Positions 17,660 through 56,452 of a stretch of 64,000 nt of DNA are shown piece after piece. Origin of the DNA: a phage; the sequence record PX441839.1, one strand, 5' to 3'. The notes under the pieces are model-generated. The model was not told the DNA's origin. It saw nothing but the letters and a program-made list of their open reading frames with translations, and ran no database searches. The stretch's first letter is position 1. Every line of letters begins with the position of its first letter. The position numbers and the translations under genes were made by a program.

Positions 17660-18201
17660 TATTTCCTAGCTCCGCTCTCAAATGCCCTTTTTGTTACCTT
17701 TGCCATAGCTTCGAGGTCTTCCATTGTCACTGTTGGGTGATTTTTCTCAAGGTATCCCTTTATTGCCCCAATAATGTCACTAAGTTCTTGCAGGGCCATC
17801 AGTTTGACACCTTGTTTCTCAGCATCCATGAATTCCTGCACCTCTTCCATCACTTTCCCTGAGGTCCCGTATGCATGTTTTTCTATATCTACAAGGTGGT
17901 AGCCTGGTGACTTTTTACTTGGACTTACCTTATCTCTTACTTTTACCCAAAACACCCCATTTCGAGTGTCGGTGCTAACAACTGTTCGGATGTAGATCCA
18001 TTCCCCAAGCTCCTCCTTCACTTTGAATCTGTGCCCTGGTTCAATGGTATCCATATCGATAATCTCATCGTGACTAATTTCATCAATGACCGACACAAGT
18101 ACGTTGGGAAGCAGTTTGCATTCATTTTCCATCAGCGATGCTGAAAGCATCACCTCCAGGGCACTCATTTCCATACCTATCTCCTCTTTTAATTTTTCCA
18201 A
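17659..18201 (-). CDS. MazG-like all-alpha NTP pyrophosphohydrolase domain protein (180 aa)
   Basis: C-terminal EEVQEFMDAEKQG ... LQELSDIIGAI matches the MazG acidic helical pattern; start overlaps the downstream gene. Confidence 0.45.
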   Translation of the reverse strand: MEKLKEEIGMEMSALEVMLSASLMENECKLLPNVLVSVIDEISHDEIIDMDTIEPGHRFKVKEELGEWIYIRTVVSTDTRNGVFWVKVRDKVSPSKKSPGYHLVDIEKHAYGTSGKVMEEVQEFMDAEKQGVKLMALQELSDIIGAIKGYLEKNHPTVTMEDLEAMAKVTKRAFESGARK

Positions 18202-19304
18202 GCCATATCTTGAACCTTAAGAATAACTTCTTCTGCTAACTTCTTGTCTGAATTATACGGCAACGAAGTAGACTTGTAAAGGACATTTCGAACGTACTCG
18301 TCCTTTCCCTCTGCCCACTCAAGAATCTCATCGAGAGTCTTCGATCCATTTCGGATTGCCAATAATTCATCAGCATCTTCACGGAACACATTGACTTCCC
18401 CTGTTGTGAGGATCTCTTCCGCCATTCGCATCAGGCGAACAAGGTGCATAGCGTGTTTTGTGTCGTAACCGAATTTAACCTCCAATTCATGGCGTGTGGC
18501 ATTACGGTTTTTCTTCCAATTCCAATAGTTCTTGTGCTTTTCTTTTGCCTGTTTGTGTTCTTCCCGCATGTACTTAACAAAGAACAGCGGAGGCTGGCGC
18601 TTAATACTGTCTGGGATCTCTTCATACACAACCTTCCTGATAGAACCATCTGGATTGAACATAGGTGGAACATTGTCCCGATGGTCAGGAACAACAGCAA
18701 AATGATCTGCACCAAGTGGAATCATTGAACAAACCCCAACCATGTTATTCAGTTTCCTCATGAAGTCCTCGTGCTTGAGCACAGGAACAGACAAATAACT
18801 TTGCACAAGTCTGAAAAACTCCAACTGACTTGGTGCTTTTTCTGGTTGCGGGTTGTTAATCCACTTATCGTGACCTCGGATACGCTTAAGTTGGCTCATT
18901 GCATACCCGCTAAATCTGTGCGCCACGTTGGAATTCAAAAAGGTATGAGCATTGTCCCGAAGAATATCAAATTCCGGCGTTCTGTACAGGATCTCTTGGT
19001 CCCTAGTGAATAGGGTCTCAATGATGTTTGGGTTCATATCCAGAAACAAACTCATGAACGTATTCAATTCATAAACTTTACCATCCTCTGCTCCAGGGAT
19101 GTTTAGTTCAGTTACCTTCTTGAAGGGTGTCCGCACAACACCCGGTTTTGCAACAAAGATACCTCGGATATCTGTATCACTCGTCGGAAGAGATGTACCG
19201 TAAGCCTTCGATCCTGACAAGTTTAGCATGACCACTTTTGAAACGTCTGGATGCTTTTCCAGACTTGCTACCATACTTAATACCTCTCCATTCGGAACAC
19301 ACAT
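18189..19304 (-). CDS. Pol-beta-superfamily nucleotidyltransferase (about 371 aa)
   Basis: hG[GS] ... [DE]h[DE]h signature LSGSKAYGTSLPTSDTDIRGIF; ATG at 19304 preceded by GGAGGAGG RBS. Confidence 0.6.
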   Translation of the reverse strand: MCVPNGEVLSMVASLEKHPDVSKVVMLNLSGSKAYGTSLPTSDTDIRGIFVAKPGVVRTPFKKVTELNIPGAEDGKVYELNTFMSLFLDMNPNIIETLFTRDQEILYRTPEFDILRDNAHTFLNSNVAHRFSGYAMSQLKRIRGHDKWINNPQPEKAPSQLEFFRLVQSYLSVPVLKHEDFMRKLNNMVGVCSMIPLGADHFAVVPDHRDNVPPMFNPDGSIRKVVYEEIPDSIKRQPPLFFVKYMREEHKQAKEKHKNYWNWKKNRNATRHELEVKFGYDTKHAMHLVRLMRMAEEILTTGEVNVFREDADELLAIRNGSKTLDEILEWAEGKDEYVRNVLYKSTSLPYNSDKKLAEEVILKVQDMAWKN

Positions 19305-19400
19305 GTTTACCTCCTCCAATTCGACCATCGTATAAATCACAGAGGCCACACCCTCTGCTTTTTAATTTTTTATAGTTAGAACAGTTCTCGCAACTACGTG

Positions 19401-20468: not shown

Positions 20469-20937
20469 CCTTTAAGCGAAGCTTTTTAATATTCACCAAA
20501 AGCTCTCGCTCACCCTCTGTAAAGTAACGGGTATCCCCATCTTCCGTGAGGTATGTAAATGGGGCATTACCCTCCTCGTCAAGTTTAGAGGAATACATAT
20601 ACTCTGGCAGTACAATACAGGCCGCAGTTAATGCACCATTCAAAGCATCCTCTGTTTCCTGGAAAAAGGAAGATGGCAGGTGCTTGTTCTTGTCGAAGAT
20701 GTCGATAAGGTCGAATATCTTCTGCTGATAACCACCATTAAGTACGATGATTGTCTTATCTGTGGATGCCCACTGTTTTGCCATCCTCACAGCAGCATGG
20801 CCTTGGTTTACCGCAGAGTTGTACTTATGCATAAGTTCAACAATGGCGTGAGCAGACTGAATACCTGCATGGATACCTGCGATATACTGATTAACAACAC
20901 AATACATACGGGTTGACATATTTCTCTCCTTAATCAT
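20461..20937 (-). CDS. putative peptidyl-tRNA hydrolase, PTH2-like (158 aa)
   Basis: MYCVVNQYIAGIHAGIQSAHAIVEL and QW...KTIIVL follow the PTH2 pattern (M.LVVR...G.AAQ.SHA / W...K.VV); sits directly before the CCA enzyme. Confidence 0.45.
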   Translation of the reverse strand: MIKERNMSTRMYCVVNQYIAGIHAGIQSAHAIVELMHKYNSAVNQGHAAVRMAKQWASTDKTIIVLNGGYQQKIFDLIDIFDKNKHLPSSFFQETEDALNGALTAACIVLPEYMYSSKLDEEGNAPFTYLTEDGDTRYFTEGERELLVNIKKLRLKGE

Positions 20938-22243
20938 TTAACCATTTTGGTGTATATGCGTATTGCAAATTACGAATATTCTTTTCTGTAATATCTGACT
21001 TAGCTTTTAGGATACCTCTTGCAACATAGCCTACTTTCAGACTCTTTACCTTTTGCTGGATAACCTCTGGTCGTCCTTTGAACTCCTCTGCGATCTCTCT
21101 GCTCTTTTTAGATATCTCTGACCTGTTTCTTACCAACTCCGCAACAGCACCGAGCAAGATATAAGGTTGATCATAGGCATCGTGAATTTTTGTAGGCCCT
21201 CGTCCACGAGCATCGCAAATACACGCCTCTACAAATTTCATTATAAACTCTTGGTCTTTCTCACCTCTCAACCGAGAAATTAAATCATATACCTTTTTCG
21301 GCCTCATGTCCAACACCCTGTGAAGTCGGGTATGATCGTCACATACCCTCCAAGCAAGGTCCATCCATTTGTTTGGAACTCCGAACCTGTCTCCCAACGA
21401 TTTTACGTAACCAAGTCCCTCAAACTCATGACCTCGTAGATGACCATGATCCCAGTACATAACCTTTCCAAGATCGTGGCACAATACTGCCCATTTCACC
21501 TCCGGTGCTGACTTAAGCCCTTGTGCGTAGTCCAAGCAAAGAAGGGTGTGTACATAGGCATCTCCTTCTGGGTGGTGAGCCTCAGGTTGCTTAACCCCTT
21601 TAAGATTATTTACCTCTGGCATTTCTCCAAGTTCGCACAAGGTGTCTATCATTATTGACGGTTTGTTCAAAGAAGATTGGTCTTCAAAACACTTACGGAT
21701 CTCCGCCATTTTTCTTTCTTTTGGGAGAGCCGCAAGGTTTTCCTTTGCTCGGTGTGCCAAAAGAACAGTGCTTGCTGCAACTTGGAAAGTTCCACCGTAC
21801 CTGGCGAACAATCTTGCCAGTCGGTAAATTCGCAAAGGGTCATCTCGTAATGTGTCACGGGAGACATGTCTAAGGACTTTCCTTTCTATGTCCTTTGCCC
21901 CATTAAAAGGATCAACATATTCTCCGGTTTCCAAATCTTTTGCAATCGCATTTATAGTAAGATCTCGTCTCTTTAAGTCTTCTTCGATTGTTACATCTGG
22001 GCTGAAAACTACCTCAAAATCATGGTATCCTGCTCCAGTTGATCGTTCGGTACGTGCCAAGGCGTACTCTTCCTTGGTTTCTGGGTGAAGATAAACAGGG
22101 AATGCAGCACCAACTTGCTCAAACCCCATTTCAATCATGTCCTCGTGGGTATATCCAACACAAACATAATCCTTATCTTTTGGCTCCAGACCCATCAGTT
22201 CGTCACGGACGGCACCTCCAACCAAGTAGATCTTCTTATTCAC
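20930..22243 (-). CDS. cca: tRNA nucleotidyltransferase (CCA-adding enzyme) with HD domain
   Basis: N-terminal LVGGAVRDELMG ... DKDYV head-domain motifs and a C-terminal HD-type region; 437 aa. Confidence 0.8.
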   Translation of the reverse strand: MNKKIYLVGGAVRDELMGLEPKDKDYVCVGYTHEDMIEMGFEQVGAAFPVYLHPETKEEYALARTERSTGAGYHDFEVVFSPDVTIEEDLKRRDLTINAIAKDLETGEYVDPFNGAKDIERKVLRHVSRDTLRDDPLRIYRLARLFARYGGTFQVAASTVLLAHRAKENLAALPKERKMAEIRKCFEDQSSLNKPSIMIDTLCELGEMPEVNNLKGVKQPEAHHPEGDAYVHTLLCLDYAQGLKSAPEVKWAVLCHDLGKVMYWDHGHLRGHEFEGLGYVKSLGDRFGVPNKWMDLAWRVCDDHTRLHRVLDMRPKKVYDLISRLRGEKDQEFIMKFVEACICDARGRGPTKIHDAYDQPYILLGAVAELVRNRSEISKKSREIAEEFKGRPEVIQQKVKSLKVGYVARGILKAKSDITEKNIRNLQYAYTPKWLND

Positions 22244-50963: not shown

Positions 50964-51155
50964 ATGAGAAACCTTGTCGCAAAACATAATCATAACCGTT
51001 CAGCAATCCACCTAGATCGCTCCAAGGAGCCTCAAAACACAATAGAGGAGGGTTTGCTAGACTACTTTGCAGAAAACGCTCAGGATGTCGCACAGGAGGA
51101 ATACAAGATGGCATCTGGATTACCAACGTTCTCCTTTGAACCTCACTGGCGTTGA
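50964..51155 (+). CDS. hypothetical protein (63 aa)
   Basis: Internal ATG of listed ORF 50934..51155. Confidence 0.4.
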   Translation: MRNLVAKHNHNRSAIHLDRSKEPQNTIEEGLLDYFAENAQDVAQEEYKMASGLPTFSFEPHWR

Positions 51156-51219
51156 CTATCGAAGAGTCCTACAGTAAAATTAAGTCATGGATTAACTAAC
51201 TGACATCAATGTAGGACTT

Positions 51220-51477
51220 ATGAACAATGAAAATTTCAAGCTATCCCTTAGCTTCGTAACCCCAGATATCAATTCACTCGAACACATCGAATATTTCCAC
51301 TCCTTTGAAGATGCCATTGAAGAAGCAAACGACATTGCATTTACTACGGTAGGATACCCTCTCGAAGATTGGAAAGTCCTTGACTTCGGATTTGAAAGTG
51401 TACTATACTCATTTTGTCCCAACGAAGCGGATTGCAGTTCCCGCTATAAACTTACGATAGTTAAGGAGGAGTTATGA
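51220..51477 (+). CDS. hypothetical protein (85 aa)
   Basis: Six-frame ORF. Confidence 0.5.
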   Translation: MNNENFKLSLSFVTPDINSLEHIEYFHSFEDAIEEANDIAFTTVGYPLEDWKVLDFGFESVLYSFCPNEADCSSRYKLTIVKEEL

Positions 51478-51692
51478 GGAAGTTTCAGTATATTTTGACC
51501 ATTGATCTGGATGATGAGGCTTTGAATGCGCTCGAGGAGTGGAAGCTGTTCCGAACGGCACATGGATTATCAGGCGATGGTATTGAAGAGTTTGCCAAGA
51601 AATTTATTCCCAGTGGAATTGAAGAACGTATTAAGGAAGACCTTCTTGGAAATACAACCCACCGAGTAACTTACGCAGGAGAACTGAAATGA
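51474..51692 (+). CDS. hypothetical protein (72 aa)
   Basis: Start overlaps the upstream stop. Confidence 0.5.
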   Translation: MRKFQYILTIDLDDEALNALEEWKLFRTAHGLSGDGIEEFAKKFIPSGIEERIKEDLLGNTTHRVTYAGELK

Positions 51693-51910
51693 TCCGTAAG
51701 CATAAAGTTTTAGTCACATTGAGTGTTGACTATGGGGACCCTACTATTAAGGCACTTGTGGATGAACGCATCTCTCAAGAGGGGATAACTGTTGAAGACA
51801 TTCACAATGATGCCAAGGAAGTCCTTATTGAAGCTGTTGAAGAAATGATTAAGGACGGTGTTGACGAAAACTGCGACGGACTTAAGTTTGAGTACGAGGT
51901 TGTGGAATGA
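51689..51910 (+). CDS. hypothetical protein (73 aa)
   Basis: Start overlaps the upstream stop. Confidence 0.5.
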   Translation: MIRKHKVLVTLSVDYGDPTIKALVDERISQEGITVEDIHNDAKEVLIEAVEEMIKDGVDENCDGLKFEYEVVE

Positions 51911-51937
51911 AAGACGAATTTGATGGTTTTGTAGGTT

Positions 51938-52138
51938 TTGGTGAAGGAATCAGTTATGCGGAGGATGTGGATATTTTTGATGAGCACCCTGATTTCTGAA
52001 AGAGATCATCCAAATGCGGATGAGGATAGAACTTGCTATTTCTGCGGTCATAGTTTCAAAGGTCCTTTCAGAAGCGTTATGTGCTGGAAGTGCCTAAATA
52101 AAAAGAAACCTATTGACAATGGAAACATAAGCGAGTAA
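51938..52138 (+). CDS. small Cys-containing protein (66 aa)
   Basis: CYFCGH ... CWKC. Confidence 0.4.
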   Translation: MVKESVMRRMWIFLMSTLISERDHPNADEDRTCYFCGHSFKGPFRSVMCWKCLNKKKPIDNGNISE

Positions 52139-52173
52139 TCTTAATACATAGCCCGTAAGGAATTGCGGGATTG

Positions 52174-52249
52174 CCGATTTAGCTCAGTTGGTAGAGCGCT
52201 TCACTTGTAATGATGATGTCGCAGGTTCGAGTCCTGCAATCGGCACCAG
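52174..52249 (+). tRNA. tRNA-Thr (anticodon UGU)
   Basis: Manual cloverleaf: acceptor gccgatt/aatcggc, D-arm gctc-agttggta-gagc, T-arm gcagg-ttcgagt-cctgc, CCA encoded; one U-U mismatch in the anticodon stem. Confidence 0.7.
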
Positions 52250-52254
52250 ATAAG

Positions 52255-52328
52255 GCCCAATAGCTCACTGGTGAGAGCCAACCCCTCATAAGGGTTAGGG
52301 CGGGGATCGTAACCCCGGTGGGCCACCA
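52255..52328 (+). tRNA. tRNA-Met (anticodon CAU; initiator, elongator or Ile-lysidine not distinguished)
   Basis: Acceptor ggcccaa/gtgggcc, anticodon arm aaccc-ctcataa-gggtt, CCA encoded. Confidence 0.75.
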
Positions 52329-52347
52329 ACCAAAGAGAGAATTTAGC

Positions 52348-52426
52348 GCGGGTGTATCTCATCCGTCTTCTAAACGGACGTTAACCGAGTAATTGGAGTA
52401 TGGGGGTTCGAATCCCTCCACCCGCG
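52348..52426 (+). tRNA. atypical tRNA-like gene with anticodon-type hairpin UCU (Arg?)
   Basis: Canonical T-arm ggggg-ttcgaat-ccctc and acceptor gcgggtg/cacccgc, but no D-arm, a 23-nt extra segment, no CCA, and the acceptor extends to a perfect 16-bp stem (52339-52354 / 52419-52434). Confidence 0.4.
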
Positions 52427-52450
52427 CTAAATTCTTTTGAGGTGTAAAAA

Positions 52451-52966
52451 TTGCTAAACTTGAAAAATCAAAATATAGATAAAGGCACGGGATATTTATA
52501 CGTGTACGATCCAAGTCACCCAATGGCAAATAAGTCTGGAAAGGTTTATGTTCACAGGTATGTTGCAGAGACGGGGTTTGGTATAAAACTAACACCTGAC
52601 CTGATAGTTCACCACAAGGATGAGAATAAGCTAAACAACGAGCTAACAAATCTCGAAGTTATGACTTATTCTGAACATGCCCGTCACCACCACGGGGCGG
52701 ATTTTGTAGAATGTGTATGCAAGACCTGTGGCAATGTAACTTTGAGGAGGCCCTCGGAAGTTGTATCATTTTGTTCACACAAGTGCTCAACAACATTCAG
52801 AAGGAAATTTGAAATCTCTCCTCAAGAGTTGCAGGATTTGGTTTGTAACTACCCAGTTAGTGTTATTGCAAAGATGTTTGGGGTTAGTGATACAGCAATA
52901 CACAAGAAATGTAAAACCCTAGGGATTAAAAAGATGCCGAAAGGATTCTTTTTAAGACTCCCTTGA
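52451..52966 (+). CDS. HNH homing endonuclease
   Basis: YVHRYVAE ... IVHHKDENKLNNELTNLEVMTYSEHARHH is a classic HNH motif; C-terminal Cys cluster and HTH-like region. Confidence 0.7.
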   Translation: MLNLKNQNIDKGTGYLYVYDPSHPMANKSGKVYVHRYVAETGFGIKLTPDLIVHHKDENKLNNELTNLEVMTYSEHARHHHGADFVECVCKTCGNVTLRRPSEVVSFCSHKCSTTFRRKFEISPQELQDLVCNYPVSVIAKMFGVSDTAIHKKCKTLGIKKMPKGFFLRLP

Positions 52967-52998
52967 CATAGGTAATTGATCCTGATAAGATAATTACA

Positions 52999-53397
52999 TT
53001 GTTTCATTTCGGGATCGACAATATGGCAAAAGCTGAGATCGTAACCCGTAAGCGTGGACGGCCTTCGAAAGAAGAAAGCACAGCCATTGCTACTGAAAAG
53101 GCAATTCTTGAATATCGCCTTAAAGTGGCGATGTTATTACCTACCGCTGTTGATACCCTTAAAGGTCTGTTAACGTCAGGCTCTGAAAAAGTTAAAGAGG
53201 GTACTGCAAAATTCCTGATCAATGAGGCTAAAGAGGTGTTTAACATCTACGTCGCAGAAGATAATCAGGACAGTGAAGCAGGTGGTACAGTATCTGCAAA
53301 CTCACAGACCCACGCTGGATCGTCTGATGAGATTAAAAACATTATGCCTCTTACTACGGAAATCCGTGAGTACAAGATGGCAGAAGGTGAAGATTAA
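52999..53397 (+). CDS. hypothetical protein with AT-hook-like RKRGRPSK (about 125-132 aa)
   Basis: Six-frame ORF; terminator follows. Confidence 0.45.
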   Translation: MFHFGIDNMAKAEIVTRKRGRPSKEESTAIATEKAILEYRLKVAMLLPTAVDTLKGLLTSGSEKVKEGTAKFLINEAKEVFNIYVAEDNQDSEAGGTVSANSQTHAGSSDEIKNIMPLTTEIREYKMAEGED

Positions 53398-53428
53398 GAC
53401 CCTTCGGGGTCTTTGAGTTTTCTTTTGA
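53398..53428 (+). terminator. rho-independent terminator
   Basis: gaccc-ttcg-gggtc followed by tttgagttttctttt. Confidence 0.5.
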
Positions 53429-53457
53429 CGATTATTTTCGTACAAAAGAGAATTTAA

Positions 53458-53544
53458 GCCAGGTTATACCGTAGGGGTAGCGGAGGAGACTGTAAATCTC
53501 TGGTCATTGCGACTCGGGTGGTTCGACGCCATCACCTGGCACCA
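53458..53544 (+). tRNA. tRNA-Tyr (anticodon GUA), type II
   Basis: Acceptor gccaggt/acctggc, anticodon arm ggaga-ctgtaaa-tctct, long variable arm, CCA encoded. Confidence 0.7.
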
Positions 53545-53549
53545 AATAT

Positions 53550-53639
53550 GGAGAGTTGGCAGAGCGGCTGAATGCACCTGACTTGAAATCAGGCGACCGT
53601 TAACTCGGTCCGTGGGTTCAAATCCTACGCTCTCCGCCA
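53550..53639 (+). tRNA. tRNA-Ser (anticodon UGA), type II
   Basis: Tracks E. coli tRNA-Ser: ggagagt-tg-gcagagcggctgaatgc ... cctga-cttgaaa-tcagg ... gtggg-ttcaaat-cctac ... gctctcc-g-cca. Confidence 0.85.
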
Positions 53640-53720
53640 AATATCGCCCCTTATATAAAAGAACACCTGCGCGGCTGGAAAAACCCACTCAACAGTTCTT
53701 GAAAAGGGGCAACAATTTAC

Positions 53721-53798
53721 GGATCATTAGCTACAATTGGTTAGAGCGGCTCACTGTTAATGAGACGGTTCGTGGTTCAAGTCCACGATGATCCGCCA
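53721..53798 (+). tRNA. tRNA-Asn (anticodon GUU)
   Basis: Acceptor ggatcat/atgatcc, anticodon loop ctgttaa, T-arm cgtgg-ttcaagt-ccacg, CCA encoded. Confidence 0.8.
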
Positions 53799-53805
53799 AA
53801 CAATA

Positions 53806-53950
53806 GAAGGGTAACTTAAAGGCGGGTGTCCTGCCACTGGCCTCCAAAACCAGTCGTAAGGGGTTAGATTCCTCACTCTTCTGCCAAGTCGGGGTGTGCG
53901 CCAAATAAGAGCGGGTTAGCAACTGTGTTGTAGATTAGTCTACCACCCCA
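53806..53950 (+). ncRNA. degenerate tRNA-like sequences / possible small stable RNAs within the tRNA cluster
   Basis: Hairpins actgg-cctccaaaa-ccagt and gtaga-ttag-tctac plus tRNA-like termini (agaaggg ... ctcttct-g-cca), but no canonical cloverleaf. Confidence 0.3.
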
Positions 53951-53960
53951 CACAATAAGA

Positions 53961-54036
53961 AGTCCTATAGTTTCAGCGGTTAAAATACTCGCCTGTCACG
54001 CGAGAGTCACGGGTTCGAATCCCGTTAGGACTGCCA
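53961..54036 (+). tRNA. tRNA-Asp (anticodon GUC)
   Basis: Acceptor agtccta/taggact, anticodon arm ctcgc-ctgtcac-gcgag, T-arm acggg-ttcgaat-cccgt, CCA encoded. Confidence 0.8.
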
Positions 54037-54043
54037 TTTCTGA

Positions 54044-54119
54044 TGGAGATTAGCTCAGTAGGTAGAGCAAGCGACCGATAATCGCTGGGTCACTGGTTCA
54101 AGTCCAGTATCTCCAACCA
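54044..54119 (+). tRNA. tRNA-Ile (anticodon GAU), with unusual C at position 33
   Basis: Acceptor tggagat/atctcca, D-arm gctc-agtaggta-gagc, anticodon arm agcga-ccgataa-tcgct, T-arm actgg-ttcaagt-ccagt, CCA encoded. Confidence 0.65.
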
Positions 54120-54124
54120 AATAC

Positions 54125-54201
54125 CTCCGTGTAGCTCAGTCTGGTAGAGCGATTGCTTTGGGAGCAATAGGTCCAACGTTCGAGTCGTTGTACGGAGACC
54201 A
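54125..54201 (+). tRNA. tRNA-Pro (anticodon UGG)
   Basis: Acceptor ctccgtg/tacggag, anticodon arm attgc-tttggga-gcaat, T-arm caacg-ttcgagt-cgttg, CCA encoded. Confidence 0.85.
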
Positions 54202-54204
54202 AAT

Positions 54205-54279
54205 TGGGGATTAGCCAAGCGGTAAGGCACGAGGCTTTGATCCTTGTATGCGGAGGTTCGAATCCTCCATCCCCAGCCA
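54205..54279 (+). tRNA. tRNA-Gln (anticodon UUG)
   Basis: Acceptor tggggat/atcccca, anticodon loop ctttgat, T-arm ggagg-ttcgaat-cctcc, CCA encoded. Confidence 0.8.
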
Positions 54280-54284
54280 AATAA

Positions 54285-54361
54285 GCGTCCTTAGTGTCAG
54301 TGGTCTAACACTCCATCCTTCCAAGTTGGAACCACGGGTTCGAATCCCGTAGGACGCTCCA
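54285..54361 (+). tRNA. tRNA-Gly (anticodon UCC)
   Basis: Acceptor gcgtcct/aggacgc, anticodon loop cttccaa, T-arm acggg-ttcgaat-cccgt, CCA encoded. Confidence 0.8.
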
Positions 54362-54489
54362 AAATTACACCTCCGGTGGTCAGGGAACTGGCAATCAGGA
54401 GGTTTTTCTTTATGTGTCCGTGGTGGTTCGGACTTTATCCCACCAGAATTCTTATAATAATAAAAAATATCTCCTCTCCTTCGCCTTAG

Positions 54490-54516
54490 GCCCTCCATTA
54501 CGGAGGGCTTTTTTAT
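54490..54516 (+). terminator. rho-independent terminator after the tRNA cluster
   Basis: gccctcc-attac-ggagggc followed by ttttttatt. Confidence 0.55.
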
Positions 54517-54560
54517 TGGCAGCTATAGTGGTAAAATATAGAATATTAACAGGAGGTAAT

Positions 54561-55208
54561 ATGCTTGAAATTTTAACATCCTCTGGAACAAGGCCACCAG
54601 AGGACGAGGTTCTTTTCCTTTTTGATGCAGAGATGCAAAATGAAGGAGATACCGTGATGATTGACCAAGTATCCAAGAACACCCTAGCCCAGCGCCTGGC
54701 GACTTACGCTGGACATCCGTCATATCCCAACAGGATAGTAAACCATGCGGATTACGGAATGGTATTCTCACTTGGTGGGAACTTTTACCATTGGACTTCA
54801 AACTGGTTCAAGCCCCCTGAGAATATACCACCAGGAAAGAAACTGGTGTATCAGATTGAGTTTGCCTCCCCTGTCACAGGGTATTGTTTTGGAACAGGTG
54901 GTCACTTAACAGGGAGCACATGGTGGTTAGGCTTAGAAATTAGCAAGTCAACAACATACGGTATGACCCTAATATCCAGCAGAACATCATCTTCTGGAGC
55001 TTCTACAACCATCCCAGGAGATAACCTGATGCAGGATATCCGTGTTGAGTACATAACAAACACAACTATTCTTGCAAGAAGGGAAGGTTTTTCTGGAACG
55101 GGTGGTCCTTACACTCATGATCATAACTTTTTCACGAATATCTATATTTTTGGTGGACCACGGGATGCATCCGGTATGGGACAGCCAGAACTTTATACGG
55201 AAACCTGA
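54561..55208 (+). CDS. hypothetical protein (215 aa)
   Basis: ATG at 54561 after AGGAGG RBS; Gly/Ser/Thr-rich, no recognisable motif. Confidence 0.5.
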   Translation: MLEILTSSGTRPPEDEVLFLFDAEMQNEGDTVMIDQVSKNTLAQRLATYAGHPSYPNRIVNHADYGMVFSLGGNFYHWTSNWFKPPENIPPGKKLVYQIEFASPVTGYCFGTGGHLTGSTWWLGLEISKSTTYGMTLISSRTSSSGASTTIPGDNLMQDIRVEYITNTTILARREGFSGTGGPYTHDHNFFTNIYIFGGPRDASGMGQPELYTET

Positions 55209-55239
55209 AAAGAGTTAAAGTTTCTTTGGAGAAAAGATA

Positions 55240-55608
55240 ATGAATTACCTTTTAAAGTACAAGAAGTATATTTTCGGGGCAACATTGGCTATTTTGATAA
55301 TTCTGTCTGCGAATATGTACATCAGTTCGGTAGATAAGAAGGCCCACGCTAGAGGTTTTGAAGAGGCAAACTCTGCATGGATGGTCAAAGGAAGGCAATA
55401 CGTTGATCTCTTGGACCAGTCGTACAAAGAAAATAGAGAACTGAATTACGAATTGAACAAGGCAACCAGGCAGGATGCTAAGAAGGACCAAGATAGAAGG
55501 TCTAAGACTGCCGCCGCTCAAGTTGACCTTGCAAGAGATCCTTCTGCTAATTCCAAAACCGTCAGTGACAAGTTTGTAGATCTCTATAACGTATCTTTGG
55601 GGGAATAA
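55240..55608 (+). CDS. putative i-spanin (Rz-like inner-membrane spanin)
   Basis: N-terminal transmembrane helix then charged periplasmic domain; immediately upstream of a lipoprotein gene with overlapping start. Confidence 0.5.
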   Translation: MNYLLKYKKYIFGATLAILIILSANMYISSVDKKAHARGFEEANSAWMVKGRQYVDLLDQSYKENRELNYELNKATRQDAKKDQDRRSKTAAAQVDLARDPSANSKTVSDKFVDLYNVSLGE

Positions 55609-55928
55609 TGAAGAAGAGATTCTTAGGGGTTATCCTTGCCTCGGTAATCATAATGGGTTGCTCAAATAATAAAGAGATTCCAGATGTTCAGTTGGCAGAA
55701 ATTACAACCGAGAAATTGATAGACAAGCCCAATCCAGAGTTAATGGAGGATTTACCTCAGAAGACAAAACTGGAAAGAGGTATGAGTGAAGGAGAGGTTG
55801 GGGAAATTATCAGCAACAATAACCTTCGTGCAGGGACCATAGAATGGAAATATGAAGCACTCCAGCAGTATGTCTGCAACATATTTAAAGAACCTGTCGG
55901 AGAGGTTTGTACAAAAGGAGATAATTAA
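55608..55928 (+). CDS. putative o-spanin (Rz1-like outer-membrane lipoprotein)
   Basis: Signal peptide with lipobox IMGC. Confidence 0.5.
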   Translation: MKKRFLGVILASVIIMGCSNNKEIPDVQLAEITTEKLIDKPNPELMEDLPQKTKLERGMSEGEVGEIISNNNLRAGTIEWKYEALQQYVCNIFKEPVGEVCTKGDN

Positions 55929-56452
55929 TGCTTGAGATGATGATTGCAAAAGGGGGTGAAAAATCATCAGGTTCTCCTATGGACTATGCTCAGTTTTTAA
56001 ATTGGTTGCAGAATAACAATATAAGGGCTGTTACAGCAAGAAGATCCTCAGAGGAGAGAGTTCTCCCTATACAGGAAGCCCTTGAATTCACATACTCAGC
56101 AGGTACATTCATAGAGAGCGGAACCATGTGGGGAAGCCCCTACTCCACTAGGGTGACGTATGACTCAATGTGGCAGTATGTGGCGCGACACTGTTTTCCA
56201 AACTTATCTTTATATGAAAGAGAGCGGCAGGTAAACAGGCTGGTTCTTCTTAAGAAAACAGCCACGGTCAATTATCCAGACTATATATCGGTAAACCGGA
56301 ACGGTTTTCAGAGTGCCAGTTATGGCAATTACCTTGGATTTTTCGTTACACATTTTGTTTATTATGATGAATCGTCTAAACTGATGAGGGTAGTAAAACC
56401 ATCTCAAGGTTATATTGGGAGTGGTGCCCTTTTTACAGGCGAGTTCGACTAA
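55928..56452 (+). CDS. hypothetical protein (174 aa)
   Basis: Six-frame ORF; a terminase small subunit by position is possible but unsupported by motifs. Confidence 0.45.
   Translation: MLEMMIAKGGEKSSGSPMDYAQFLNWLQNNNIRAVTARRSSEERVLPIQEALEFTYSAGTFIESGTMWGSPYSTRVTYDSMWQYVARHCFPNLSLYERERQVNRLVLLKKTATVNYPDYISVNRNGFQSASYGNYLGFFVTHFVYYDESSKLMRVVKPSQGYIGSGALFTGEFD

Follow-up and report, generated by a model that had tools for sequence, protein, structure and literature searches.

Layout of the locus

The stretch of phage DNA analysed here (sequence record PX441839.1), whose full 64,000 nucleotides (nt) we call the window, carries at 52348-52426 a tRNA-like element with the anticodon UCU, directly upstream of a gene for an HNH endonuclease. 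Within 52335-52438 there are a 7-base-pair (bp) acceptor stem, an anticodon arm with a 5-bp stem and a 7-nt loop, and a canonical T-arm, while a D hairpin is absent (Table 1). An earlier description made from the letters of the window, hereafter the sequence-only reading, had listed an acceptor, a 7-nt linker, a UCU hairpin, a 23-nt segment and a T-arm, and inspection located each of them where that reading had placed it. Hundreds of unrelated phages carry the same rewired design, and comparison of their sequences indicates that the element is probably a functional tRNA-Arg of a phage-restricted family with a rewired, block-swapped core.

Several defining features of a tRNA were found. The Rfam model RF00005 matches exactly 52348-52426 with 38.4 bits (E = 4e-7, model positions 1-71; the gathering threshold is 29 bits). 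The acceptor has 7 bp, the T-arm has a 5-bp stem and a 7-nt TTCRANY loop, and the 5-bp anticodon stem carries a 7-nt loop with U33 and a purine at position 37. The D hairpin of a cloverleaf, between position 9 and the anticodon arm, is missing; in the RF00005 alignment the D-arm positions are deleted (15 model positions are represented by 4 nt) and 20 nt are inserted 5' of the T-arm. ARAGORN detected ten ordinary tRNAs in the window, none of them a tRNA-Arg, and made no call at 52348-52426. Phage Kashira has a canonical tRNA-Arg(UCU) with exactly the same anticodon loop. After the discriminator G52426 there is CTA where CCA would be expected, so no CCA is encoded, as had been pointed out, whereas the flanking tRNA-Thr and tRNA-Met genes both encode it. 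Minimum free energy (MFE) folding gave -46.8 kcal/mol, with z = -6.1 against dinucleotide shuffles.

Other classes of tRNA-like RNA were considered and rejected. No YrlA match lies over the element, as a YrlA/Y RNA-like mimic would require (the matches are 16.9 bits at 52217-52278 and 23 bits at 53986-54094), and a mascRNA mimic scores 18 bits against a threshold of 42.5. For a tmRNA tRNA-like domain, ARAGORN made no tmRNA call and no tmRNA family was among the Rfam matches. The acceptor strands lie at both gene ends in normal order, which discards a terminally permuted tRNA gene, and an intron, a tRNA-Sec fold and an allo-tRNA fold each fail on features of the element. Scans for promoters, terminators and tandem repeats around the locus found nothing relevant to it.

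Table 1. Features of the element and associated genes, in window positions
Feature	Position	Strand	Remarks
Clamp leader arm GAGAGAATTTAGC	52335-52347	+	pairs with 52426-52438, lengthening the acceptor by 13 bp
Acceptor stem, 5' strand GCGGGTG	52348-52354	+	pairs with CACCCGC 52419-52425; covariation
7-nt linker TATCTCA	52355-52361	+
U8-A9-U connector (TAT)	52355-52357	+	U8 and A9 invariant in 125 sequences
Strand x (CTC), rewired 'D-stem'	52358-52360	+	pairs with 52387-52389; covariation in 125 sequences
A between strand x and anticodon stem	52361	+	single nt; position-26 analogue
Anticodon arm TCCGT/CTTCTAA/ACGGA	52362-52378	+	anticodon TCT/UCU 52369-52371; U33 and A37 present
23-nt segment CGTTAACCGAGTAATTGGAGTAT	52379-52401	+	between anticodon arm and T-arm
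Bulge CGTTAACC	52379-52386	+	from anticodon stem to strand y; family consensus C-R-U-U-A-A-N-N
Strand y (GAG), rewired 'D-stem'	52387-52389	+	partner of 52358-52360
D-loop-like connector TAATTGGAGTAT	52390-52401	+	joins the T-stem directly
T-arm GGGGG/TTCGAAT/CCCTC	52402-52418	+	99% paired in the family
Acceptor 3' strand CACCCGC and discriminator G52426	52419-52426	+
Clamp trailer arm CTAAATTCTTTT	52427-52438	+	in place of CCA; with G52426 pairs with the leader
HNH_3 endonuclease gene	52451-52966	+	Pfam HNH_3, E = 4e-10; TTG start
CCA-adding/repair enzyme homologue	20930-22243	-	PolyA_pol head and HD domains
RlaP-family RNA-repair nucleotidyltransferase	18189-19349	-

Distribution of the family

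The sequence-only reading had proposed a comparison with related phages, and a sensitive blastn search with a 116-nt query found homologues in 254 phage records, so the design is recurrent. The carriers fall into groups without overall DNA similarity to one another: Vequintavirinae, phi92-like Justusliebigvirus, Felix O1-like Ounavirinae (Felixounavirus), Asteriusvirus jumbo phages, N4-like phages from the BASEL collection, Sugarlandvirus and a Vibrio phage. In most GenBank records the element is unannotated or covered by a coding sequence, and a few label it 'tRNA-OTHER'. Pattern scans found it in 55-65 IMG/VR contigs and in at least 120 metagenome contigs, the latter from fresh water, the sea, soil and the gut. 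A pattern scan of bacterial and archaeal genomes (185,579 species, one genome each) gave 7 matches, all in contigs of metagenome-assembled genomes (MAGs) and at least 2 of them chance matches, and the element was found in no isolate genome of this set. Therefore, with many phage records against only 7 MAG contigs and zero isolate genomes, the family is phage-borne. No description of a phage family of D-armless or non-canonical tRNA-Arg was found in the literature searched, whose coverage mostly excluded subscription journals.

Pairing was analysed in a gapless alignment of 125 distinct 79-nt members, and flank statistics were taken from 143 distinct members. Chance matches of the pattern scans (loci L074/L188, L133, L157, L180, L182, L193, L197, L198, L202 and L205 of our collection) were set aside. 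A covariance model built from the alignment scores members at 85-102 bits, divergent members at 53-70 bits and ordinary tRNAs at no more than 33 bits; the window copy is its second best match, with 101.6 bits. One truncated copy (L199, - strand, near oriented position 2176) loses the family sequence directly after the D-loop-like motif has begun (...AAGCGTAAT; what follows is unrelated), and is an apparent pseudogene that would illustrate the decay of a rewired gene.

A fourth helix supported by covariation

The segments of the RNA follow one another as acceptor, U8-A9-Y, strand x, 1 nt, anticodon arm, bulge, strand y, 12-nt connector, T-arm and acceptor 3' strand. In the 125 sequences, acceptor columns 1-7 pair with columns 72-78 in 98.5% of cells and all 7 pairs covary. 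The anticodon stem is 95% paired and the T-stem 99%, with compensatory changes in nearly every pair of the three canonical stems. A fourth helix joins columns 11-13, directly after U8-A9-Y, to columns 40-42, directly before the sequence UAAYUGGAGUAU, and standard pairs occupy 375 of its 375 cells (100%). Its middle pair is UA in 77 sequences, AU in 22, GC in 22 and CG in 4, and its inner pair is CG in 108, UA in 9 and GC in 8; all 3 pairs covary, each change being two-sided. None of 500 shuffles matched this pairing, which falls to 11-43% when the partner is shifted by 1-3 columns. A fourth base pair (columns 14-39) is not conserved, with 16.8% paired. The helix encloses the anticodon arm and leaves a bulge of 3-8 nt on the 3' side, of 3 nt only in some divergent members. 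Overall, 94% of cells are paired and covariation is present in every helix.

The sequence-only reading had described an element with no D-arm and a 23-nt extra segment. There is indeed no D hairpin, but the pairing of CTC in the linker with GAG inside the 23-nt segment had been overlooked. The conserved 12-mer UAAYUGGAGUAU lies between the fourth helix and the T-stem. Where the search left it unconstrained, it was kept as UAANUGGAGUAU in 54 of 62 true members, and the variants UAAGCGGAGUAU, UAAUGGAGUAU and UAAUGGCGUAU all retain the GG. On the strength of the aligned sequences, this secondary structure, fourth helix included, is well supported and very likely correct.

Arginine identity

The anticodons of the 143 members are UCU, CCU, ACG and UCG, with one ACU, and the anticodon loop is CUUCUAA in 113 of them and a close variant in the others. 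A sequence-agnostic structural descriptor, run over the collected loci, found 85 instances, all with Arg anticodons, and no rewired tRNA with a non-Arg anticodon. The gene with ACU (L131 124-202, - strand, loop CTACTAA), on paper a reader of the serine codon AGU, is otherwise typical; a sequencing error, a recent mutation or a recoding variant may account for it.

The identity set of bacterial tRNA-Arg consists of A/G73, A20, C35 and U/G36 (PMC9976931). Among the 143 members the discriminator is G in 87, A in 53, U in 2 and C in 1 (G52426 in the window). C35 is invariant and position 36 is U or G, the window having UCU. In nearly all members an A directly follows the conserved GG (UUGGAG), and we infer that it is equivalent to position 20. 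With G/A73 in 140 of 143 members, C35 and U/G36, the family fits the bacterial set at these positions, and its GG-A motif may supply the A20. CCA is encoded in 99 of 143 members (about 70%), and the genes are normally spaced members of tRNA arrays. Several contigs harbor more than one copy: CCU, UCU and ACG (L138), ACG and UCU (L104 and L187, one contig), UCU and ACG (L062), and CCU with a divergent UCU beside canonical Arg(ACG) and Arg(CCG) genes (L066).

The family is clearly derived from a tRNA-Arg. An unusual tRNA-Arg for AGA/AGG codons had been among the suggestions of the sequence-only reading, and it is supported by the Arg anticodons, the identity elements of arginyl-tRNA synthetase (ArgRS), the CCA of most relatives and the vacant Arg(UCU) slot described below. 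The best explanation is that the element is the only tRNA-Arg gene of this phage and reads AGA, and its UCU anticodon probably reads AGG too. The host ArgRS would charge it through C35, U36, G73 and the A20 analogue. Judged by sequence, bacterial translation probably uses a non-cloverleaf tRNA in nature.

A vacant tRNA-Arg(UCU) slot

The region shares 93% identity with Salmonella phage SSBI34 (Vequintavirinae, 141 kb). Over its entire genome SSBI34 has ordinary tRNA genes of the same ten kinds, and none for tRNA-Arg. Canonical tRNA-Arg(UCU) was found in 0 of 20 loci with 15-28 ARAGORN tRNAs, while Arg(ACG) is present in many. In Kashira, a related member of Vequintavirinae, the same gene block contains a canonical tRNA-Arg(UCU) and no rewired copy. 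In CR9 and phiTE, neither a canonical nor a rewired tRNA-Arg(UCU) was found in the corresponding region. In window open reading frames (ORFs) of at least 120 codons, AGA and AGG occur at 9.4 and 6.9 per thousand codons and together make up 31% of Arg codons. That the rewired element fills an empty tRNA-Arg(UCU) slot is supported by these observations.

Further unusual genes occur in such tRNA regions. In the syntenic tRNA region of phiTE (L212 3441-3499), the record annotates a 'pseudo-ToxI' non-coding RNA, an antitoxin mimic against ToxIN; a tandem repeat of the pseudo-ToxI type was not found in window 51000-56000. In tRNA clusters of Klebsiella-type Vequintavirinae-like contigs there are oddly structured tRNA-like genes that ARAGORN reports as 'tRNA-???' with 2-nt anticodons (L010 928-997 and 2598-2672, L048 5383-5457, L012 262-337).

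The leader-trailer clamp and RNA-repair genes

The perfect 16-bp closing stem described by the sequence-only reading, gaatttagcgcgggtg (52339-52354) with cacccgcgctaaattc (52419-52434), is fully complementary, and counting two G-U pairs brings the closing helix to 20 bp (52335-52354 with 52419-52438). Clamps of 13-17 bp beyond the acceptor, with at most one mismatch and closing helices of 20-24 bp, were found in 20 of the 44 CCA-less members and in 0 of the 99 CCA-encoding ones; the chance of at least 8 bp in random leader-trailer combinations is 0.0075. A clamp lineage formed by the window, UPEC06, Bas93 and relatives, a Felix-like group and several metagenome contigs keeps the inner TTAGC/GCTAA. 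Within it the middles of the arms differ yet stay complementary (AATT/AATT, CTTC/GAAG, CACT/AGTG and GACA/TGTC). Other clamp members have unrelated clamp sequences. Therefore, as arms that differ remain complementary and clamp and CCA are mutually exclusive, the pairing is selected, as an alternative to an encoded CCA.

Our best guess is that the clamp is a processing entry site. The precursor would be excised by an endonuclease, RNase III being the obvious candidate for a helix of 20-24 bp. RNase P would then cleave it, the 3' end would be trimmed, and either the host enzyme or the phage CCA-adding enzyme would add CCA. The clamp may also shield the 3' end of the precursor from exonucleases. 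The phage homologue of the CCA-adding enzyme matches NF008137 with E = 8e-109 and 364 bits, below the equivalog cut-off of 451, and we infer that it may complete the CCA-less tRNA. The annotation of SSBI34 places an RNA ligase (RNA ligase 2) and a phosphatase elsewhere in the genome. Together with the CCA-adding homologue and RlaP they look like an RNA or tRNA repair toolkit. Phage RNA ligases repair cleaved tRNAs. An RNA ligase gene also lies directly downstream of two clamp-type members (L025 1075-2091 and L132 1603-2619; Pfam RNA_ligase, best E = 9.5e-34).

Proposed fold of the core

Strand x enters the 5' strand of the anticodon stem after 1 nt, and for this reason the x:y helix is expected to stack on the anticodon stem, where it would act like the D-stem of a normal tRNA. 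The stack would have about nine layers, against ten in a normal tRNA (D-stem, 26-44 pair and anticodon stem), with strand x in place of positions 23-25 and strand y in place of 10-12. The connector could then serve as D-loop: its A-A would stand for A14 and R15, its GG for G18 and G19, the next A for A20, a later A for A21, and the U directly before the T-stem for Y48. In the window copy, G52395 and G52396 are the candidates for G18 and G19, and A52397 is the candidate for A20, an ArgRS determinant. The tertiary contacts U8-A14, 15-48, G18-psi55 and G19-C56 could all form, and the GG of the 12-mer would dock on the T-loop and build the elbow. The L-shape would be kept with only three altered backbone joins (9 to 22, 44 to 10 and 21 to 48), and the join from 44 to 10 would close the nick of the normal coaxial stack. 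These joins would equal a swap of blocks 10-21 and 22-44, or an exchange of the D-loop and the anticodon arm around one D-stem. By analogy with normal tRNA, such an L-shaped block-swap fold is plausible, with about even chances of being right.

Comparison with known tRNAs

The nearest canonical counterpart is tRNA-Arg(UCU) as found in Kashira (L214 1257-1333), which shares with the family the loop CUUCUAA, G/A73 and the D-loop motif UUGGA. Its acceptor and T-arm are close to those of the Felix O1 member (CGGGGTG...GCAGGTTCGAATCCTGC in Kashira, CGGGGCG...GCGGGTTCGAGTCCTGC in Felix O1). E. coli argU and the tRNA-Arg of T4 are other canonical examples of tRNA-Arg(UCU). The canonical order is 5' D-strand, D-loop, 3' D-strand, position 26, anticodon arm and variable loop. 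In the family, by contrast, one strand, position 26, the anticodon arm, the bulge, the other strand and the D-loop-like segment precede the T-stem, and there is no ordinary variable loop.

To our knowledge, natural D-armless tRNAs are known only from mitochondria. The mitochondrial tRNA-Ser(AGY/N) has an effectively longer anticodon arm with short connectors to the acceptor/T domain, and reads AGN codons. That both it and the phage family read AGN is a coincidence without shared descent. Unlike it, the phage RNA has a canonical GTTCGAATC T-loop and a GG-containing D-loop-like segment, is phage-borne, has arginine anticodons (save L131) and arginine identity elements, and would work with bacterial machinery if functional. 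The likeness to this tRNA of animals lies in the missing D hairpin (PMC4013460), the longer anticodon arm and the short connectors. In E. coli, HisRS, EF-Tu and the ribosome all accept an engineered D-armless 'mini HisT' (Edelmann et al. 2024, PMC11551756), a proof of principle that an RNA without D hairpin can decode in bacteria. According to the same 2024 paper (PMC11551756), all known bacterial tRNAs are canonical cloverleaves. Mini HisT is artificial, has no substitute for the D-loop and is unstable owing to polynucleotide phosphorylase (PNPase), whereas the phage family is natural and conserved and has a D-loop analogue. Mitochondrial tRNA-Ser and mini HisT are thus the nearest architectures, and both lack the combination of canonical T-loop and D-loop analogue.

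In the circularly permuted tRNA genes of Cyanidioschyzon merolae the termini are permuted and processing restores a normal tRNA. The order of segments is non-canonical in both cases, but the phage gene has normal ends and is permuted internally, and the mature RNA presumably retains this order for good. Thus the term 'permuted', offered by the sequence-only reading, is apt for the swapped internal order of D-stem strand, D-loop and anticodon arm and not for the termini. CCA-less precursors of T4 tRNAs require RNase BN and the CCA-adding enzyme. They resemble the element as phage tRNA genes without an encoded CCA, while the present phage differs in having its own homologue of the CCA-adding enzyme, and we know of no 13-bp leader-trailer extension of the acceptor in T4 precursors. 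A precedent for non-standard cloverleaves in phage tRNA clusters is given by the allo-tRNAs and (8/4) tRNA-Ser/tRNA-His of bacteria and phages (Mukai et al. 2017, PMC5389517). In these the acceptor/T lengths are altered (8/4, 9/3) and the four arms keep their normal order, while the family combines a normal 7/5 branch with a rewired core.

The neighboring HNH endonuclease

The HNH_3 gene begins just after the clamp, with GAGGTG (52439-52444) between the two. In unrelated contigs (N4-like, Felix-like, Asteriusvirus and others) the element is followed at once, on its own strand, by a homologue with 36-56% identity; those at 48-56% identity are L091 940-1440, L079 12154-12654, L036 1814-2314, L044 6630-7142 and L195 5192-5722. 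HNH-type genes account for 12 of 60 distinct downstream ORFs. HNH_3 is probably a homing endonuclease that travels with the tRNA gene, and the arrangement suggests that the tRNA-plus-endonuclease cassette is mobile. Free-standing homing endonucleases co-convert flanking DNA. Co-conversion is therefore a plausible reason for the spread of the element at 80-90% identity across phage families, and the adjacent endonuclease would carry the cassette from phage to phage. Canonical tRNA-Arg genes might be its targets.

Alternative explanations

Several points weigh against a functional tRNA-Arg with a rewired core. Most homologues were gathered with sequence patterns in which parts of the molecule are fixed, and the invariance of these parts therefore stems in part from the search itself; in the metagenome scan, only the 12-mer and the T-arm were fixed. 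The 3-bp helix is predicted by neither MFE folding nor RNAalifold, covariation being its sole support. The mapping of the 12-mer onto the D-loop, and with it the L-shape, is reasoned from textbook tRNA tertiary pairs, and two members have GG-C, not GG-A. An engineered D-armless tRNA in E. coli is limited by PNPase-dependent decay (PMC11551756). The window copy has no CCA, and its 3' end is tied up in a 20-bp helix that, if not processed beforehand, would block RNase P or ArgRS. Finally, a clamp-type copy in L034 immediately adjoins a canonical-looking tRNA-Arg(UCU). In that gene (L034 1522-1598, - strand), a C-A and an A-C mismatch of the anticodon stem flank three G-C pairs, and L034 is the only co-occurrence of a rewired copy and a canonical-looking tRNA-Arg(UCU) seen.

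The locked ends without CCA and the pair of genes in L034 would also suit a tRNA-Arg mimic or decoy that acts outside translation by absorbing or inhibiting an Arg-specific anticodon nuclease or ArgRS, and whose clamp copies are never aminoacylated. There are reports of antiphage systems that cut host tRNAs, tRNA-Arg among them (PMC12916289). RNA-repair-type genes are present in the window (CCA-adding enzyme and RlaP) and in SSBI34 (RNA ligase and phosphatase), and the family comprises several Arg isoacceptors, as a decoy against an Arg-wide nuclease would need. However, 70% of the members encode a normal discriminator and CCA end, and the ArgRS identity nucleotides outside the anticodon are retained. 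A canonical tRNA-Arg(UCU) is missing in carriers whose large tRNA sets should include one, the phage makes heavy use of AGA/AGG, and the clamp copies are as conserved as the others, to judge by the score of the window copy. We therefore regard a decoy as unlikely.

An even less probable view is that the element acts in cis as an RNA or DNA element of the mobile HNH cassette (a 5' processing or stability element, a homing site or cargo), its tRNA shape being incidental or vestigial. The HNH_3 homologues directly downstream in unrelated phages and the share of HNH-type genes among downstream ORFs are in its favor, as is the 3' arm of the clamp lineage, which stops just before the Shine-Dalgarno sequence of the next gene. 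However, about 80% of the distinct genes downstream encode something other than an endonuclease, and many copies are flanked by ordinary tRNA genes. A role as mRNA leader would leave the constraint to Arg anticodons, discriminator and CCA unexplained, and hitch-hiking with a homing endonuclease is compatible with a functional tRNA-Arg and no substitute for it.

As to structure, the element could be a truly D-armless tRNA in which the 7-nt connector is unpaired and the 23-nt segment contains a variable-arm hairpin, CCGA/GUAA/UUGG. MFE folding of the window sequence draws this hairpin, and ARAGORN calls two family members of the collected loci (L009 and the divergent second copy in L066) as tRNA-Arg of 94-98 nt. 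In the 125 sequences, however, the hairpin is only 69% paired and its closing pair is broken in 75, with no convincing compensation, while the competing helix on the same GAG is 100% paired with every pair covarying. The MFE hairpin was accordingly rejected, and a structure of this kind is very improbable. The weakest alternative, a functionless pseudo-tRNA or fragment decaying after deletion or rearrangement of the D-arm, which the sequence-only reading had allowed for and to which the missing ARAGORN call, the 'tRNA-OTHER' labels and the truncated L199 might point, is effectively refuted by a 79-nt architecture free of indels in 125 distinct sequences from unrelated phages of many environments, by compensatory changes in all four helices with invariant loop motifs, signs of strong purifying selection, and by the scores of the family model.

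The functional tRNA-Arg thus remains our preferred explanation. A fuller scenario is tentative and somewhat more likely to fail than to hold in all its parts: the element would be an active L-shaped isomer of an elongator tRNA, charged by ArgRS and decoding AGA/AGG/CGN, which spreads among phages with the homing endonuclease as a replacement tRNA-Arg and evades host nucleases that target tRNAs, or the endonuclease itself.

Other tRNA-like elements in the window

The sequence-only reading had linked the element to one at 203-316 through their closing stems. Both have a perfect 16-bp closing stem (CTGTTATGTTATCCTG / CAGGATAACATAACAG at 203-316), but the latter is outside the family, since the family model gives no match there. 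One of its hairpins, GCGGG/TTCAATC/CCCGC, resembles a T-arm, and a second one, CCGG/TTCAAGT/CCGG, is T-loop-like. No significant Rfam match was found (best tRNA-Sec, 15.8 bits), and its sole blastn homologue is in SSBI34, with 97.9% identity.

Another tRNA-like sequence, without ARAGORN call, is located at 53806-53884, between tRNA-Asn and tRNA-Asp, and ends in GCCA. Its acceptor is AGAAGGG/CTCTTCT, and where the D-arm would stand there is a GC-rich hairpin, GGCGG/GTGTC/CTGCC. A stem, ACTGG/CCAGT, closes a loop of 9 nt (CCTCCAAAA), and the T-loop, TTAGATT, is unusual. Its Rfam match to tRNA-Sec is weak (22.5 bits, E = 0.4).

Implications

Because ARAGORN misses the element and several GenBank records leave it unannotated or as 'tRNA-OTHER', tRNA repertoires and codon-supply analyses of Felix O1, phi92, rV5-like and BASEL phages lack their probable tRNA-Arg. 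The restriction to Arg, the CCA-less clamp subset, the linked homing endonuclease and the RNA-repair genes offer testable ties to a tRNA-centred arms race between phage and host. If the RNA is charged and decodes, then ArgRS, EF-Tu, RNase P and the ribosome tolerate a tRNA core that is connected differently. It would be the first non-cloverleaf tRNA known to work with the bacterial translation machinery and, if the fuller scenario holds, a new kind of phage counter-defence. The family would also be a natural experiment that separates topology from geometry in tRNA architecture, and a ready scaffold for orthogonal tRNA engineering.

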